Shown in pieces: positions 7,637 through 56,802 of a stretch of 56,802 bases of DNA. The first letter of the stretch is position 1. The number at the start of each line of letters is the position of its first letter. Location of the stretch: the IMG/VR virus record IMGVR_UViG_3300049053_000110, positions 1 to 56,802 of that record; one strand, given 5' to 3'. A model generated the notes under the pieces. The model was not told the origin of the DNA. It was given only the letters and a program-made list of their open reading frames with translations, and ran no database searches. A program made the translations under genes and the position numbers. The stretch comes from a virus. Taxonomy: Duplodnaviria > Caudoviricetes.

Positions 7637-8772
7637 ATGGATCTGAATAAAATTCACCATATCGATGCAAGTAAAGGGGTGTATGATCTGCAACACGGTT
7701 CAATAAATTGCTGCGTATCATCCATCCCTTATTATGGCTTGCGTGATTATGGTGTGCCTAAAACTATGTGGCCGGAAATAACTTATTCTCTTTTTGGTTT
7801 TGATATTACTATTCCTGAAATGGAATGCTGCCTTGGCTTGGAAAAAACGCCAAAGGAATTTGTTGCACACATCGTTCATATCTATAGGGGCATTTGGAAT
7901 GCCTTGGCCGACGATGGCACCAACTGGTTGAATATTGGTGATAGTTATGCAGCAGCTGGCAAAAATCGAACGGAGGAACAAGCTTGTAGAAAATCAAATT
8001 TATCAGGTTCAAAAGGCACTCAGATTTCTTGTTCAAAACAGCCCAACAAAATAGTTGGTGGAGTTAAGGCAAAAGATATGTTAGGCATTCCATGGATGGT
8101 TGCTTTTGCTCTTCGTTCAGCAGGATGGTATTTAAGGCAGGATATTATTTGGCACAAACCCAATCCGATGCCCGAAAGTGTAACAGATCGTTGCACAAAA
8201 GCTCATGAATACATTTTCTTACTAACCAAAAGCAATAAATATTTCTTTGATCAGAAAGCTATCCTGCAGCCATTAGCAGATACAACTGAAATCCGTTTGG
8301 CACAAAATCTATCCGGCCAAAGGCCGGATCAGATCGAGTGCCAGGAAAAACAAATGGACCTATGAAAGCAGTAAGTCGCAAGCATACTGCAAACCCTAAT
8401 CCTAAAGGCAATCAGCAGTCGTTTCACAAAACTGGTCATTCTGGATATGTAGATAATAATGGAAGGGTTTTGGTTAACCTGGATGGCAGCAATAAAAGAA
8501 GTGTGTGGAGTGTTACCGCCAAACCTTTTTCTGAAGCTCACTTCGCAACCTATCCACCTGATTTAATTATTGATTGTATTAAAGCCGGCTGTCCTGTTAA
8601 TGGCGTTGTGCTTGATCCTTTCATGGGCGCCGGCACTACAGCATTAGTTGCTGCGAAGCTCAATAGAAATTTTATCGGCTTCGAACTTAATGCTGATTAC
8701 ATCAAAATAGCAAACAAAAGATTGAAGAAAGAATTAGGCATGTTCCATCCAGATAATACAAAAATTACGTGA
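7637..8772 (+). pseudogene. DNA N4-C/N6-A methyltransferase split by a -1 frameshift (7637-8365 and 8338-8772)
   Basis: N-half: SSIPYYGLRDY (SPPY-like), WHKPNPMPESV. C-half: HFATYP, VLDPFMGAGTT. Confidence 0.8.
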
Positions 8773-17869: not shown

Positions 17870-17944
17870 CGCGGGGTGGAGGAGTGGTTCCTTGCCTCTT
17901 TGACTTGGAGGAGACCGGTAGTTCGATTCTACCCCCCGCAACCA
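17870..17944 (+). tRNA. tRNA with GAC (Val) anticodon on an initiator-type body
   Basis: Acceptor CGCGGGG/CCCCGCA with C1xA72; D-stem GAGG/CCTT; anticodon stem CCTCT/GGAGG with loop TTGACTT; T-arm GGTAG-TTCGATT-CTACC; encoded ACCA end. Confidence 0.88.
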
Positions 17945-17945
17945 G

Positions 17946-17972
17946 AAAAAGGAGCTTTAAACGGCTCTTTTT
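17946..17972 (+). terminator. Terminator after the tRNA
   Basis: AAAAGGAGC..GCTCTTTTT. Confidence 0.5.
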
Positions 17973-21824: not shown

Positions 21825-22436
21825 ATGAAAAAGAAAGCCACCAGGAAAACCCCACCTAAAGCAAAGCCAAAAAGCTCTGCCAGGGGAAAACATGTGAAAA
21901 AACCTAAGCCGAAATCCACAAAACCAAAACCTCAGCATGTGGATAACGGCAGGAACGAGAAAGGGCAATTCGTTGCGGGCAACGCCGAGGGTCACCGTTT
22001 TGAAGAGGGGCATAAAGATTCTGAAAAGTGGACTCCCGAAACAGTAATACCCGTTATGGAAAAAATGCTCAAGCATCTTACTACTGATCCCATGGCAGAA
22101 GATGAAGGTGACAGTAAACCCATCAACGTGGTTAGAGCCAACGATATAAAGCTCGCCGGAGAAATAAGGTTGATGTTCGGGGTAACAAAACAAAGGTGGG
22201 CTGAATGGATGCAAAAGTTTAAGGATCATGCCGTTATTTCCGACCTCAGTGCGCAAATTATGGAAATCCTTGAGTGCCGTTTGATGTATTCAGGCACTTC
22301 AATGGACACATTTATACTTAAGAATCACTACGATTATACGGACAAGATCGATACTACTTCAAAGGGTAAAGAAGTGGGCACAGCATCATCTTTCCTTGAC
22401 CTATTAAAAGCAGCTTCCCAACAACCGAGTCAATAA
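21825..22436 (+). CDS. terS: Terminase small subunit
   Basis: Directly upstream of TerL; RNEKGQFVAGN and FILKNHYDYTDK motifs. Confidence 0.75.
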   Translation: MKKKATRKTPPKAKPKSSARGKHVKKPKPKSTKPKPQHVDNGRNEKGQFVAGNAEGHRFEEGHKDSEKWTPETVIPVMEKMLKHLTTDPMAEDEGDSKPINVVRANDIKLAGEIRLMFGVTKQRWAEWMQKFKDHAVISDLSAQIMEILECRLMYSGTSMDTFILKNHYDYTDKIDTTSKGKEVGTASSFLDLLKAASQQPSQ

Positions 22437-24057
22437 ACAACAGGCTATACAACAATTGGCCGAATGGCGCAAACCTGGTGGATGGAAACATTTCGCAAGG
22501 ATAGTGCTTGGCGTGAACCTCGATCCTGAACAGGAAGAGATACTCGATGCCGTTCAAATGCATAGCGCTGTGTCGGTTGCTTCCGGTACCGGTAGGGGCA
22601 AAGACTTCGTGGCCGCAGTTGCGGCAATGTGTTTTTTATACCTCACTCCAAAATGGAATGAGAAAGGCGAGCTGGTAGAAAACACCAAGGTAGCCATGAC
22701 AGCACCAACAGGCAGGCAGGTTAAGAACATCATGTTTGCCGAAATCTCACGCATGTTCAACCGGGCCAAGTTCTTACCAGGCAGGCTTACTGGCAATGAT
22801 ATAAGAACAGAAGATGCAGAATGGTTCTTAACAGGCTTCAAGGCCGATGATCATAATACAGAGGCATGGACCGGCTTCCACGCAGTAAATACATTCTTTG
22901 TAGTTACCGAGGCGAGCGGTATGCCCGAACTAATCTTCAATGCCATTGAAGGAAACCTGCAAGGCAATTCACGGATATTGATTGTGTTTAACCCCAACGT
23001 TTCCACCGGCTATGCCGCAGCTTCACAAAGGTCAAAGCATTGGAGGCATTTTAGGCTCGACTCACTCACGGCGCCAAACGTGGTGTATCACAAAGAGATT
23101 GCGGCAGGTACCTACAAAGCTATTCCCGCCCAGGTGGACCACAAATGGGTAAAGGATAGGGTTGAAAAATGGTGCATGCCCATTGCCCAAAGCGATTATA
23201 ATGAAGGCAAGGGAGATTTTTATTTTGAGATTGACGGCATAAACAGGCTATGGAGGCCAAACGATTTGTTCCGCGTGAAAGTCCGGGGCATGTTCCCCGA
23301 AGTCGGCGAAGATGTGCTCGTACCGCTCCACTGGATAGAGCTTGCCAATGACAATTGGCGGGAACACATGGAACAAGGATGGTCACACAAACACAAAGCC
23401 CTTCGCCTTGGCTCTGATATCGCCGGAATGGGAACAGATTCTACTTGTCACTGCTACCGGTTTGGAAGTTTTGTAAAAGAGTTTCGTTCTATCCACTCAG
23501 GAGGCACGGCAAACCACATGCAATCGGCAGGGCATATAGTTTCTGAATTACGTGCAAACACCTCAGAAACAATGCTTGCCCAGTCGTTCATAGATACAAT
23601 TGGCGAAGGTGCCGGCGCTTACTCCCGGGTGCTGGAAGTGTTGGAAGATGATGATATACTTGAAGTAGATAACCAGGTGCACAGCGTAAAGGCGGGAGAG
23701 CGGGCAGAGTATGAAGGCTCAGAGCTTACAGACTCCACCGGCCAATACTATTTTAAAAACATGCGAGCCTTCCTTTATTGGGCAATCCGCGAATGGCTCA
23801 ACCCTGTAAACAAGCACAAGCCATGCCTTCCACCCGATGATGAACTTGCTCAGGAACTAACAGAAACAAAGTGGAAGCTACTTAGTAACGGTATGATTCA
23901 GATTGAGCCGAAGGAAGAACTTAAAGCAAGGATTTCCCGCTCACCGGACAAAGCAGATTCTCTTTCACTCACATTTTACCCATCCGAGGACATACACCGC
24001 AAGGCAAGTCTATCGGGCAATAAAAAAGAAACATCTATTTGGAACAACTTTCAATAA
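22429..24057 (+). CDS. terL: Terminase large subunit (proposed GTC start at 22429; TTG alternative at 22456)
   Basis: Walker A SGTGRGKD, VVTEASG, nuclease motifs GSDIAGMGTD and SPDKADSL. Confidence 0.9.
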   Translation, partial: VNKQQAIQQLAEWRKPGGWKHFARIVLGVNLDPEQEEILDAVQMHSAVSVASGTGRGKDFVAAVAAMCFLYLTPKWNEKGELVENTKVAMTAPTGRQVKNIMFAEISRMFNRAKFLPGRLTGNDIRTEDAEWFLTGFKADDHNTEAWTGFHAVNTFFVVTEASGMPELIFNAIEGNLQGNSRILIVFNPNVSTGYAAASQRSKHWRHFRLDSLTAPNVVYHKEIAAGTYKAIPAQVDHKWVKDRVEKWCMPIAQSDYNEGKGDFYFEIDGINRLWRPNDLFRVKVRGMFPEVGEDVLVPLHWIELANDNWREHMEQGWSHKHKALRLGSDIAGMGTDSTCHCYRFGSFVKEFRSIHSGGTANHMQSAGHIVSELRANTSETMLAQSFIDTIGEGAGAYSRVLEVLEDDDILEVDNQVHSVKAGERAEYEGSELTDSTGQYYFKNMRAFLYWAIREWLNPVNKHKPCLPPDDELAQELTETKWKLLSNGMIQIEPKEELKARISRSPDKADSLSLTFYPSEDIHRKASLSGNKKETSIWNNFQ

Positions 24058-34260: not shown

Positions 34261-34286
34261 GCGCCCCGATAACAAGGGGCGTTTTT
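34261..34286 (+). terminator. Terminator after the major tail gene
   Basis: CGCCCC..GGGGCG followed by TTTTT. Confidence 0.6.
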
Positions 34287-34302
34287 GCAAAAACGATTCT
34301 AC

Positions 34303-34863
34303 ATGCAGAAAGAAGAAATTTCCAAAGAAGAAATTCTCGAAAATGTTGCCAGTGCCATCACTGAGGAAACAATAAATTTTGATGTTGATGTCCGGGCGGA
34401 TGAAGAGGCTGGTTTTATTAAAAAGCTACTCAGAAAAAACAAAGCAACAAAGAGGTTTTTTGTTATCCGTCCGCTTACCATGGGCACGGCAATGCGTATT
34501 TCAAGGCTTATGATGAGGGTGAAGCCTGGACGGTTTGATTATAACGGCCTCATGGATGAAATGGGCAAGAGCAATGATAAAATGGCTGAGATACTTGCCC
34601 TTGCTGTTACCAACAAAAAGAAACTCCCTTCTCCAAAGATGATAGAGTTTTTTTTATTCAATGTGACAGCCGGAGAAATGCAGGCCCTTTGCTCCATGGT
34701 TATTAAACAAATGGGAGTCGAGGCTTTTTTGAATACTATCGTCTTAATGAGAGGCATCAACGCATTAGAGATAAGCAAGAAAGAAGCGGAGGAGCCGAAA
34801 GAAGAGACGAGCCCACAAGTCCCTGGGAATACGTTGGAGGTCTTGCAAAATCTTTTCGAGTAA
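34303..34863 (+). CDS. Tail assembly chaperone (gpG-like)
   Basis: Lies between the major tail and tape measure genes. Confidence 0.75.
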   Translation: MQKEEISKEEILENVASAITEETINFDVDVRADEEAGFIKKLLRKNKATKRFFVIRPLTMGTAMRISRLMMRVKPGRFDYNGLMDEMGKSNDKMAEILALAVTNKKKLPSPKMIEFFLFNVTAGEMQALCSMVIKQMGVEAFLNTIVLMRGINALEISKKEAEEPKEETSPQVPGNTLEVLQNLFE

Positions 34864-35024
34864 GCCCCGACTTTGTTCTTTGGAAAATGAGTTTTATAAA
34901 TGTCTGCATGTATGGTGCAACCATACCGATTCCAGAAATGCCGGAACCTGGCGAAGACAAAAAGGATAAAGATCAAGAGGTTGAAGGCCTTGGCGGGCTG
35001 AAGGACATTTTCGGAGGCGGTTAA
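34725..35024 (+). CDS. -1 frameshift extension of the tail chaperone (gpGT-like)
   Basis: Slippery T TTT TTG at 34725-34731; -1 frame open to TAA 35022-35024 (..SPWEYVGGLAKSFRVSPDFVLWKMSF..). Confidence 0.7.
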   Translation, partial: FFEYYRLNERHQRIRDKQERSGGAERRDEPTSPWEYVGGLAKSFRVSPDFVLWKMSFINVCMYGATIPIPEMPEPGEDKKDKDQEVEGLGGLKDIFGGG

Positions 35025-55623: not shown

Positions 55624-56802
55624 CTAAATCTTTTTTGTTTTACTATGAAGTTCTTTTAGATCAATGTCAACTCCAAGGTCACGCACATACTTTGCTGTAG
55701 TGGCAATATCAGTGTGACGCATTAGCCGCATTATTTCAATCAACTTTACACCTTCTCTAAGCAAGTGGACGGCTCGAGTGTGCTTGAAGCCATATAGGGT
55801 GTAATCTTCACTCAACCCCATTTCCTTTCTGACATTTTGAAAGCGGCGGGCAAAGAAGTTTTTTCCGCATGGCCTTGGGCTCGGATTTAAAACAGGCGAA
55901 AAAATATAATGGTTTTTGTTTGCTTCAAGCAATCCCATTTCCTGCATTACATTTTTTAAATGCGGGTCTATTGGCACCAGGTCGTCACGGTCCGACTTGG
56001 TTACTTCTGCCCGAAATAAAAAGTTTTCTCCCTCATCGAGTATGTCACCCACCTTAATTGCCATGAGCTCTTTTTCTGACCGGACACATAAGTAATAAAC
56101 AAACTGCACGGCATACCATAGGTAAGGCTGATTGGTTTTTATTACATGGGTTACTTTGGGGAATAGTTGCTTGTCGTAATACTTGTGTTTTTTGGACCTG
56201 GTTTTTAAGCTCTCGATATCTTCCACCGGATTTTTTTCAATGAGCTCTTTTTTACGCAGGAATTCAAACACGGTATAGATAACACTTTTCAGATTGTTGT
56301 ATTGCCGGTTGCCCCATTTCTTTTCTTCCTTATTTTGCTCTAGCAGGTTTTCAATGTGCTGCTTTCTTACTTTGTTAATTGGTTGTGCGAGCAATCCTTT
56401 TGAAGAAAAGTATTCCCTGATCAATTCAACTGCGTATCGACACTTCTGCATGGTACCTTGCTCAAGGCCTCGCTTACCATACTTATCCAAGAAAAACTCG
56501 AGCGCCGATTTTATTGTTATAATGCCAGGGTTGGGCGCAACGCCTTCCATGGCCAATTGCATCTGTTCTTTATTGAAAGGATTGAATCCATTTTTAAGTG
56601 CTTCGTTTACGGCATCTAATAACAATGCTGCATGCTCTTCATCTTTATAGCGGTTAACATCTTCATTCACTTTGAAGCGCTCCCATTCCTTATTATCATG
56701 TAAAGGGCGCAGTTCTGCAGGTATCCGGTAGTAATATTCGATGTACCAGCGCTTGCCTTTTACCAGCTTTGCCGGTCGGTAATCAATGTACTTCATTGGC
56801 AC
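55624..56802 (-). CDS. int: Tyrosine integrase (5' end at the window edge)
   Basis: Catalytic R (CVRS), K (VTKS), Y..KHT (variant of HxxR), H (MRHT), Y (AKYV). Confidence 0.9.
   Translation of the reverse strand: MPMKYIDYRPAKLVKGKRWYIEYYYRIPAELRPLHDNKEWERFKVNEDVNRYKDEEHAALLLDAVNEALKNGFNPFNKEQMQLAMEGVAPNPGIITIKSALEFFLDKYGKRGLEQGTMQKCRYAVELIREYFSSKGLLAQPINKVRKQHIENLLEQNKEEKKWGNRQYNNLKSVIYTVFEFLRKKELIEKNPVEDIESLKTRSKKHKYYDKQLFPKVTHVIKTNQPYLWYAVQFVYYLCVRSEKELMAIKVGDILDEGENFLFRAEVTKSDRDDLVPIDPHLKNVMQEMGLLEANKNHYIFSPVLNPSPRPCGKNFFARRFQNVRKEMGLSEDYTLYGFKHTRAVHLLREGVKLIEIMRLMRHTDIATTAKYVRDLGVDIDLKELHSKTKKI

Follow-up and report, generated by a model that had tools for sequence, protein, structure and literature searches.

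Can a temperate phage carry a tRNA of its own that starts translation at a valine codon, together with genes that are made only through it? The question is raised by a tRNA gene in the window, the term used here for the whole stretch of DNA that was analyzed, an entire viral record of 56.8 kb that is classed as a provirus and belongs to a temperate siphovirus-like phage of gut Bacteroidales. To our knowledge, every natural initiator tRNA has a CAU anticodon and carries methionine, initiators for other codons being laboratory constructs. Upstream of the tRNA gene lie an annealing protein, a helicase, a resolvase and a repressor-like gene; downstream of it lie DUF932, PAPS-reductase-like genes, terminase, portal, capsid, tape measure and integrase. 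The tRNA and its immediate surroundings comprise the following features:

17870-17944, + strand: tRNA with a valine anticodon, an initiator-type body, a valine-type anticodon arm and an encoded CCA (ARAGORN; 87.7 bits with the family covariance model R1; covariation over 24 distinct homologues)
17902-17904, + strand: anticodon GAC (G34, A35, C36), which reads GUC, and GUU by G.U wobble; the same in all family members
17905-17906, + strand: U37 and U38, with U37 (17905) in place of the near-universal purine
17947-17972, + strand: terminator-like hairpin with a T run directly 3' of the tRNA (10 pairs, then a T-rich tail)

ARAGORN reports two tRNAs in the window, and labels the one on the + strand at 17870-17944 tRNA-Val(gac). 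In its cloverleaf, C1 stands unpaired opposite A72 and is followed in the acceptor stem by G2:C71, C3:G70 and four further G:C pairs; the D stem consists of G10.U25, A11:U24, G12:C23 and G13:C22, and the anticodon stem of C27:G43, C28:G42, U29:A41, C30:G40 and U31.G39. The anticodon loop reads UUGACUU, the discriminator base is A73, and a CCA is encoded directly after it at 17942-17944. The cloverleaf that had originally been predicted from the sequence (C1xA72, G2:C71, C3:G70, A11:U24, A73, GAC and U37) is thus right base for base, and the three G:C pairs that mark the anticodon stem of initiators are indeed absent, their places being taken by U29:A41, C30:G40 and U31.G39. We take G2:C71, C3:G70 and A73 to be determinants for the formyltransferase, as they are in E. 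coli, and A35, C36 and A73 are presumably identity elements for valyl-tRNA synthetase (ValRS), following rules from E. coli work. The pyrimidine at position 37, which the same prediction had singled out as an oddity, is truly abnormal, since 56 of 57 distinct tRNAs of a host genome have a purine there.

The expectation that standard tools would label the gene a plain tRNA-Val holds for ARAGORN but not beyond it. The Rfam tRNA model (RF00005) left the tRNA unreported when run on the window, both at its gathering score (29 bits) and at E<=10, and in one Rfam scan the only model that matched it was tRNA-Sec, at 18.2 bits. Likewise, the copy in the Bacteroides genome G001 is missing from the 85 Rfam tRNA matches at E<=0.01 in that genome, and Bacteroides phage BS-TP2 carries a copy 81% identical to that of the window at a place where its GenBank record has no feature. 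The minimum free energy fold of the tRNA sequence alone is not a cloverleaf and is unremarkable (z -1.12).

To trace the two halves of the molecule, we compared the family with the 85 tRNAs of G001, which bears a prophage copy. In all 20 variants compared, the host initiator is the nearest tRNA outside the anticodon arm, at 0.73-0.88 identity; the runner-up reaches about 0.59-0.76. Scores with R1 tell the same groups apart: family members reach 83-94.5 bits, and the true initiators of 150 other Bacteroidales genomes, which are the next-best match everywhere, reach 63-75. The anticodon arm, by contrast with the body, equals that of E. coli valV/valW at 15 of 17 positions, with differences at 31 and 37 only, and the arm of the native Bacteroidales tRNA-Val(GAC) is also similar. 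Judged by sequence, the gene is therefore a valine anticodon arm set on an initiator body, and the chimera of initiator determinants and valine anticodon that was first proposed for it is borne out by both comparisons.

The likeness to bacterial tRNA-fMet extends over the unpaired 1:72, G2:C71, C3:G70, A73 and A11:U24, and further over the D arm, the AGGUC variable loop and the T arm. It even includes the variation at the acceptor end: among 27 distinct Bacteroidales initiators, positions 1:72 are U.U in 20, C.A in four, U:A in two and C.C in one, and the U.U and C.A acceptor stems of the phage family are identical to those of real Bacteroidales initiators. Where tRNA-fMet has CAU, three G:C pairs and A37, however, the phage tRNA has GAC, C30:G40 with U31.G39, and U37; all 27 of the distinct Bacteroidales initiators carry GGG or AGG at 29-31. 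Bacterial tRNA-fMet is charged with methionine, whereas the phage tRNA would presumably be charged with valine. With the elongator tRNA-Val(GAC), whether valV/valW or the native Bacteroidales one, it has A35, C36 and A73 in common, and the end of the anticodon stem in the native Bacteroidales Val(GAC) shows C30:G40 and G39 as well. The elongator nevertheless has a paired 1:72, A37 and C:G at 31:39 against the open 1:72, U37 and U.G of the phage tRNA, and its body is valine-type, whereas everything outside the anticodon arm of the phage tRNA is initiator-type. The molecule thus falls outside the initiator family as it is defined (CAU and three G:C pairs) and also outside the elongator tRNA-Val (paired 1:72 and purine 37).

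The same type of tRNA occurs on at least 109 viral contigs, as found with a pattern that fixes the acceptor stem and the loop, and the tRNA pattern was present in 13 of 185,579 species genomes, 11 of which are titled Bacteroidales, mostly in prophages. Most of these loci are closely related, so that locus counts overstate the number of independent events, and counts of distinct sequences are therefore given. The family comprises 26 distinct sequences, 24 of them aligned and two more added through the covariance model. The anticodon, U37 and the 11-nt core of the anticodon arm were fixed in all search patterns, and part of the acceptor stem in most of them; a second search was anchored on the anticodon arm with the acceptor left free, and it returned copies with U1.U72, A1.A72 and C1.U72. 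No relative of the window-type tRNA or of the window phage was found in the viral contigs or in the metagenome contigs searched, and the closest kin of the phage among 401 genomes are two with terminase DNA that is about 70% identical.

Across the 24 distinct aligned homologues, 94.2% of the pair cells hold standard pairs, as against 43-53% when the partners are slid; both sides have changed at 9 of 21 pairs, and none of 500 shuffles reached the observed covariation score. Against this background of compensated change, particular elements stand still. Positions 1:72 never form a standard pair, being C.A in 22 distinct sequences, U.U in two, A.A in one and C.U in one. Pairs 2:71 to 5:68 and A73 are unchanged in 26 of 26 distinct sequences, although the acceptor was partly forced by the patterns; in the variants found by the covariance model, 6:67 and 7:66 have been swapped to A:U or U:A, with C1.A72, 2:71-5:68 and A73 kept. 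A11:U24, which no pattern forced, is found in 24 of 24 aligned sequences, and its neighbors 10:25 and 13:22 vary. C30:G40 and U31.G39 are invariant in all copies and 29:41 is variable; the 11-nt core C30-U31-UUGACUU-G39-G40 is invariant as well, its four flanking bases having been free in the scan with acceptor stem and loop. A version of the pattern with a purine at 37 had no match in 2.9 million viral contigs, and the C37 version matched a single, unrelated tRNA, against at least 109 contigs with U37. Both traits on which the original prediction had staked its case are therefore kept by the homologues, with the 1:72 mismatch in all 26 distinct sequences and no purine-37 copy among the viral contigs.

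That prediction had also argued for selection rather than decay, on the strength of intact stems and an encoded CCA. The stems do covary, but the second part of the argument falls away: the bases after A73 are C-U-A or C-U-G in 114 of 123 other copies and only the window copy encodes CCA, which, being peculiar to that copy, is no evidence of selection. With the tRNA conserved across diverged phages, it is nearly certain that we are dealing with a real chimera maintained by selection.

The genes that accompany the tRNA in its carriers indicate what it may be used for, through cognate GTC start codons that had no place in the original prediction. An ASCH-like gene with an ordinary, conserved ATG start, whose product belongs to phrog_625, a family with no assigned function, lies within about 30 nt downstream of the tRNA in 124 of 129 loci. 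Just after it, about 450 nt downstream of the tRNA, comes a small ORF encoding a very basic, glycine-rich protein, and in a peptide-motif search the conserved peptide of this ORF begins at GTC in all 41 distinct variants. Many variants have TGA directly before the GTC; the others have AGA or CGA there, with another stop a few codons upstream, and no reading can therefore enter the ORF from that side. Divergent small ORFs that had not been used to spot the pattern behave in the same way, one of them with GTT, and several contain no ATG, GTG or TTG within their first ~45 codons. When any GTN was allowed as the first codon, 48 distinct ORFs gave GTC 47 times, GTT once, and GTA or GTG never. This restriction coincides with the reading range of a GAC anticodon, which argues against a coincidental match between the tRNA and the GTC codons.

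Purifying selection acts on the stretch ahead of any canonical start. The first canonical start of these ORFs lies 11-45 codons into the frame, and the stretch from the GTC to that start, analyzed in five groups, has dN/dS values of 0.107, 0.083, 0.154, 0.162 and 0.088, on a par with the remainder of the ORF; shifted frames of the same stretch give values above 1 or contain stops. One group of three sequences has a dN/dS of 1.93, probably through misalignment. At 1.3 and 2.2 kb downstream lie two more sets of small ORFs like these, which open with TGA-GTC-AGA, and one homologue opens with CGA-GTT-AGA. A scan that defined its targets by their product recovered 80 distinct small basic ORFs, and in 77 of these a GTC (64) or GTT (13) occurs early, ahead of any canonical start. 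The codon preceding it is NGA in 77 of 77 (TGA 44, CGA 19 and AGA 14), NGA being no requirement of the script. One to three such ORFs are present in 86 of the 89 loci that have enough sequence. The small ORFs match no Pfam family and gave a single PHROG match (E 0.032), and one of the small proteins, BS-TP2 gp53, is annotated from an internal ATG.

The excess of GTC follows the tRNA. On the tRNA strand, GTC is the second commonest first codon of long stop-opened frames without an early canonical start (48 of 1027), as compared with 37 of 2143 on the opposite strand (Fisher P 5e-6) and with 20 of 2282 in tRNA-less phage loci (Fisher P 2e-11). Among loci sampled by way of the ASCH-like gene, the tRNA is present in 75 of 75 and a GTC-headed small ORF in 74 of 75, these loci being relatives with 96-100% identity and hence not diverse; presence of the tRNA was scored here with the covariance model, the exact pattern alone having missed 19.

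In two further gene families, GTC stands where relatives have a canonical start. The first is a PAPS-reductase-like gene in a Dysgonomonas-type prophage, which has TGA-GTC exactly 27 codons before its GKD motif and no canonical start. Of 48 distinct 5' regions of such genes, 47 have a canonical start, for the most part an ATG 27 codons before the GKD motif, and the prophage gene is the one exception.

The second is the large terminase gene of the window itself, which contains neither the ASCH-like gene (best tblastn E 0.44) nor a small GTC ORF (best E 1.1). The features concerned are these:

21825-22436, + strand: upstream gene, possibly the small terminase (weak PHROG match to terminase small subunit, E 0.084)
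22429-24057, + strand: large terminase gene, read from GTC (PHROG phrog_2, terminase large subunit; 2084 homologues at E<=1e-20)
22429-22431, + strand: proposed terminase start GTC, in the context CGA-GTC-AAT, 12 codons before a conserved Trp
22456-22458, + strand: rival start TTG, 27 nt downstream of the GTC and 3 codons before the conserved Trp, the only canonical start upstream of that Trp

The terminase frame is open from 22408, and its GTC overlaps the stop (22434-22436) of the gene upstream. The nearest relatives of this terminase (L221 and L226-L228) have GTG-AAC at the very position, 12 codons before the conserved Trp, that GTC-AAT occupies in the window, and in the protein alignment the first Met of four homologues (P0006, P0012, P0016 and P0098) falls in the column of the GTC-encoded Val, with three more starting one residue earlier. 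Among 80 loci with terminase homologues, 77 could be scored, and all 77 have a canonical start at least 8 codons (9-25) before the conserved Trp, which the window does not; as for the three unscored loci, L220, L298 and L256, each has an upstream ATG, 12 codons ahead of the Trp in the first and 19 in the second. At the position of the TTG of the window, 18 terminase homologues have an internal Met or Leu codon, their starts lying 9-25 codons further upstream. The 9 extra residues that a GTC start would add lie in a poorly conserved N-terminal segment. None of the 80 homologue loci contains the tRNA (best R1 score 52 bits). A scan of the window for genes without a canonical start yielded nothing convincing as long as the terminase TTG was counted as a start. 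From sequence context, then, the terminase is the single candidate client gene of the window, with the TTG as its alternative start.

The two bases ahead of the putative GTC and GTT starts are G (-2) and A (-1) in every case, a dinucleotide found at only 12 of 315 first-ATG control sites taken from the window and L100-L111. U37 and U38 of the phage tRNA are complementary to this GA, by A-U and G.U pairing. Quadruplet pairing between initiator and mRNA has been demonstrated experimentally for E. coli initiator variants: in the work of Hollerer & Jeschek 2023 (NAR, PMC10018350), initiators with A37, G37 and U37 are reported to raise translation when the -1 base of the mRNA complements position 37 of the tRNA. 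The A at -1 accordingly fits the phage tRNA and not the host initiator, since the former has U37 and the latter, in G001, A37, which would favor U at -1. By this reasoning, the odd U37 would be an expected feature of an initiator that reads GA-GUC. A start context complementary to the full loop was considered and dropped: AAGTCAA, its Watson-Crick complement, was found 12 times in the window against 11.7 expected and is thus not enriched, and AAGTYAA is depleted; the context actually found is GA-GTC-R.

What comparative genomics alone provides is the architecture and conservation of the tRNA, the presence in its carriers of conserved genes opened by GTC or GTT, and the occurrence of GTC at the site of an ATG or GTG in two gene families. 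We consider it probable, from sequence, that these observations reflect a phage-borne tRNA of initiator type that accepts valine and starts translation at GUC, and also at GUU. We further lean, with reserve, towards a fuller proposal, in which Bacteroidales phages possess a natural orthogonal initiation system composed of a valine-charged, formylatable initiator tRNA (GAC, U37) and of client genes with GA-GUC or GA-GUU starts. Small basic proteins, a PAPS-reductase-like enzyme and, here, the large terminase would be the clients, which could be made only with the phage tRNA, and through U37 the codon-anticodon helix would reach as far as the A at -1.

The mechanism may be pictured as follows. 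The tRNA would be cut from a phage transcript and charged by the host valyl-tRNA synthetase through A35, C36 and A73. Its open 1:72, combined with G2:C71, C3:G70 and A73, would make it a substrate of the host formyltransferase, and the same open acceptor end would keep it off EF-Tu. The Val-tRNA, possibly formylated, would then enter the P site of the 30S subunit on GUC codons preceded by GA, where U37 would pair with the A at -1. One to three small basic proteins would be the clients in most other carriers, one lineage adding the PAPS-reductase-like gene, and a plausible benefit is that production of the client proteins would depend on the tRNA that the phage itself supplies.

The main counterpoint to reading the molecule as an initiator is that the three G:C anticodon-stem pairs are absent from every copy, G30 having been reported as essential for initiator function in E. 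coli (Shetty et al., PMC5389676). Engineered initiators bear on the design itself. A modified E. coli initiator with an AAC anticodon is reported to start at GUU and to yield valine or formyl-valine N-termini (bioRxiv 10.1101/2021.05.25.445580). It embodies the same design principle as the phage tRNA, namely a valine anticodon placed in an initiator body, with initiation by Val or fVal at the cognate valine codon, but engineered initiators are laboratory point mutants that keep the three G:C pairs and A37, whereas the phage tRNA is natural and has a whole valine-type arm, U37 and conserved clients. A dedicated pair of initiator tRNA and start codon is known so far only as an engineered system. 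Mutants of tRNAfMet with a GAC anticodon were reportedly made in the 1990s. Our literature searches, supplements with possible tRNA predictions aside, brought up no description of a natural initiator-type tRNA with a non-CAU anticodon, and the main text of the paper on BS-TP2 (PMC12694917) never mentions tRNA.

Among the alternatives, the one that fares best would have the molecule work as an elongator tRNA-Val(GAC), supplying the decoding of GUU and GUC in hosts that have only Val(UAC), its initiator-like body being an accident of descent. The tRNA complement of the hosts lends it some substance: G001, the host surveyed in full, contains four genes for tRNA-Val(UAC) but none for Val(GAC), and in the genomes that carry the prophage the native Val(GAC) pattern is found in one of six, as opposed to six of six for the Val(UAC) control, against background frequencies of 96 of 201 and 174 of 201. 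This trend is weak (about P 0.13 by a binomial estimate) and confounded by phylogeny, and the broader notion that the Bacteroidales as a whole lack tRNA-Val(GAC) proved wrong, given that those 96 of 201 genomes have a native gene (with A37). Codon usage, for which the pooled count covered the window and L100-L111, points both ways, GUU being used 24.2 times per 1000 codons in the window and 10.8 times in host DNA, but GUC being rare in the window at 4.3 per 1000, which argues against a need for elongator supply. The structure of the tRNA argues against it as well: 1:72 is one substitution away from pairing, yet it stays open in 26 distinct sequences despite exchanges of its bases; A11:U24 and the acceptor end do not change, in contrast to other stems, which covary; and U37 is fixed although the native Bacteroidales Val(GAC) has A37. 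As the elongator role would in addition leave the GTC-headed ORFs unexplained, we regard it as unlikely.

Distinctly unlikely, in our assessment, is that the host's ordinary initiator starts the GTC genes weakly, that the role of the tRNA is unrelated and that its match to GTC is a coincidence. A precedent exists in print, for the Streptomyces sigR gene has a natural GTC start that has no dedicated tRNA and is repressed by IF3 (PMC5472188), and the lack in the phage tRNA of the three-G:C feature needed by E. coli initiators (PMC5389676) would sit well with a role apart from initiation. Like the phage clients, sigR is a conserved gene that begins at GTC. Its GTC is, however, read poorly by the ordinary initiator with no dedicated tRNA, whereas the GTC starts of the phages travel with a cognate initiator-like tRNA, which is present in 75 of 75 loci sampled independently of it. 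Initiation by the ordinary initiator is also at odds with first codons that are GTC or GTT and never GTA or GTG, and with an A at -1 that complements the U37 of the phage and not the A37 of the host, and it is hard to credit chance with placing an initiator body bearing a valine anticodon beside GTC starts.

We hold it to be very unlikely that the tRNA serves counter-defense, as a nuclease-resistant replacement or a decoy whose U37/U38 loop and foreign body evade or soak up a defense that targets tRNAs. An altered anticodon loop has been put forward as a means by which phage tRNAs escape the anticodon nucleases of the host (van den Berg et al., eLife 2023, PMC10264068), and the loop of the phage tRNA does differ from that of the native Bacteroidales Val(GAC) at 37 and 38. 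In the passages of that paper considered here, the targets named are, nonetheless, tRNA-fMet and tRNA-Lys, with a lone mention of tRNA-Val that concerns codon preference. The phage tRNA cannot take the place of tRNA-Val(UAC) at GUA and GUG, 54% of the valine codons of the window; a replacement elongator would need a paired 1:72; and neither the GTC-headed ORFs nor their GA context would be explained. Finally, a decaying or non-functional relic of a tRNA is scarcely credible in spite of the silence of the Rfam tRNA model and the unremarkable single-sequence fold, in view of the strong compensatory covariation shown by three stems, and by 6:67 and 7:66 as well, and of conservation across diverged phages, and a remnant of an attachment site is ruled out by a complete cloverleaf situated ~38 kb from the integrase gene (55624-56802).

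If the valine-initiator reading holds, it would represent a new kind of departure from standard decoding, a natural initiator for a valine codon with clients of its own. Phage suppressor tRNAs are known to recode stop codons in late genes of gut phages, and the system proposed here would be their counterpart in the recoding of start codons: suppressor tRNAs are likewise borne by the phage and alter the decoding of its own genes, but they act at stops during elongation, whereas the phage valine tRNA would act at starts. Phages that carry the tRNA are common in people, BS-TP2 being reported in 33.5% of 930 viromes (PMC12694917). The locus also exposes a blind spot of annotation, in that a covariance-model search for tRNAs misses the tRNA and gene callers cannot call GTC, with the result that small proteins are missed or truncated. 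It offers a natural test of how far position 37 and the three-G:C stem are needed for initiation, and it would hand synthetic biology in Bacteroides an orthogonal start signal ready for use. For the temperate phages of the gut, it would amount to a new way of gating late or accessory proteins.

The small open reading frames (ORFs) found near the family tRNA, which open at the proposed start codons GTC or GTT, number one to three per phage and encode very basic, glycine-rich products of 46-93 residues that fall into several families, end mostly in G-L-S-G-G or a similar C-terminus and match no known family. An example from one of the compared loci is:

L088:9948-10118, small ORF

In other loci they are located ~1.3 and ~2.2 kb 3′ of the family tRNA, and their surroundings include genes of DndC-like PAPS-reductase and ParB-like type. 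Of the 77 GTC/GTT starts, 22 follow a GAGG-like purine tract; in downstream small ORFs (L096, L102, L052, L169 and others) it is located 8-12 nt 5′ of the GTC. The presence of this tract is notable because Shine-Dalgarno sequences are generally missing from Bacteroidetes mRNAs, as stated in a published study (PMC6847099).

In the GenBank record of phage BS-TP2 (L001, PQ571275.1), the site of the family tRNA carries no feature, and the small ORF of this phage, gp53, is annotated from an internal ATG located 11 codons past the GTC. A frequent neighbor of the family tRNA is an ASCH-like gene, encountered on the same strand ~30 nt 3′ of the tRNA in 124 of 129 loci (L003-L124 and others). Its product, of ~129 aa, belongs to PHROG family phrog_625 and has no Pfam match; the gene was not found in the window. 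ASCH domains are proposed RNA binders.

The top non-family matches of the family covariance model (R1), at 52 and 44 bits, are two tRNAs in loci that have no family tRNA, located ~3.3-3.6 kb beyond the point at which the terminase match begins:

L268:12603-12674, tRNA-Asp(gtc) (ARAGORN)
L238:12302-12373, tRNA-Asp(gtc) (ARAGORN)

Beyond the family tRNA, the window itself contains the following unusual features:

2684-2779, + strand, odd tRNA of 96 nt, called Arg(tcg) by ARAGORN
7637-8365 and 8338-8772, + strand, two adjacent overlapping ORFs, DNA methyltransferase phrog_67
34285-34863 and 34707-35024, + strand, overlapping frames just 5′ of the tape-measure gene

The two methyltransferase ORFs cover successive parts of a single profile, phrog_67, and look like one gene, split or frameshifted. 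In the pair preceding the tape-measure gene, the second frame has 60 open codons ahead of its first start codon, an arrangement that follows the layout usual for a frameshifted tail-assembly chaperone. In the 96-nt tRNA the variable arm is long, the D arm resembles that of leucine tRNAs, and the anticodon stem underlying the ARAGORN call contains mismatches. This tRNA scores 34.2 bits with the Rfam tRNA model (RF00005); it may be a further remodelled tRNA, or a relic.

In Bacteroidales genomes (L179-L207), most initiator tRNAs (20 of 27 distinct) carry U1.U72 instead of the textbook C1.A72, and two have a U1:A72 pair. A 142 kb viral contig with seven tRNAs encodes among them one with an odd anticodon loop:

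L177:1596-1667, - strand, tRNA with four-base anticodon tttg (ARAGORN)

Its acceptor stem is of the same initiator type as that of the family tRNA, and this tRNA is possibly a second kind of remodelled initiator.
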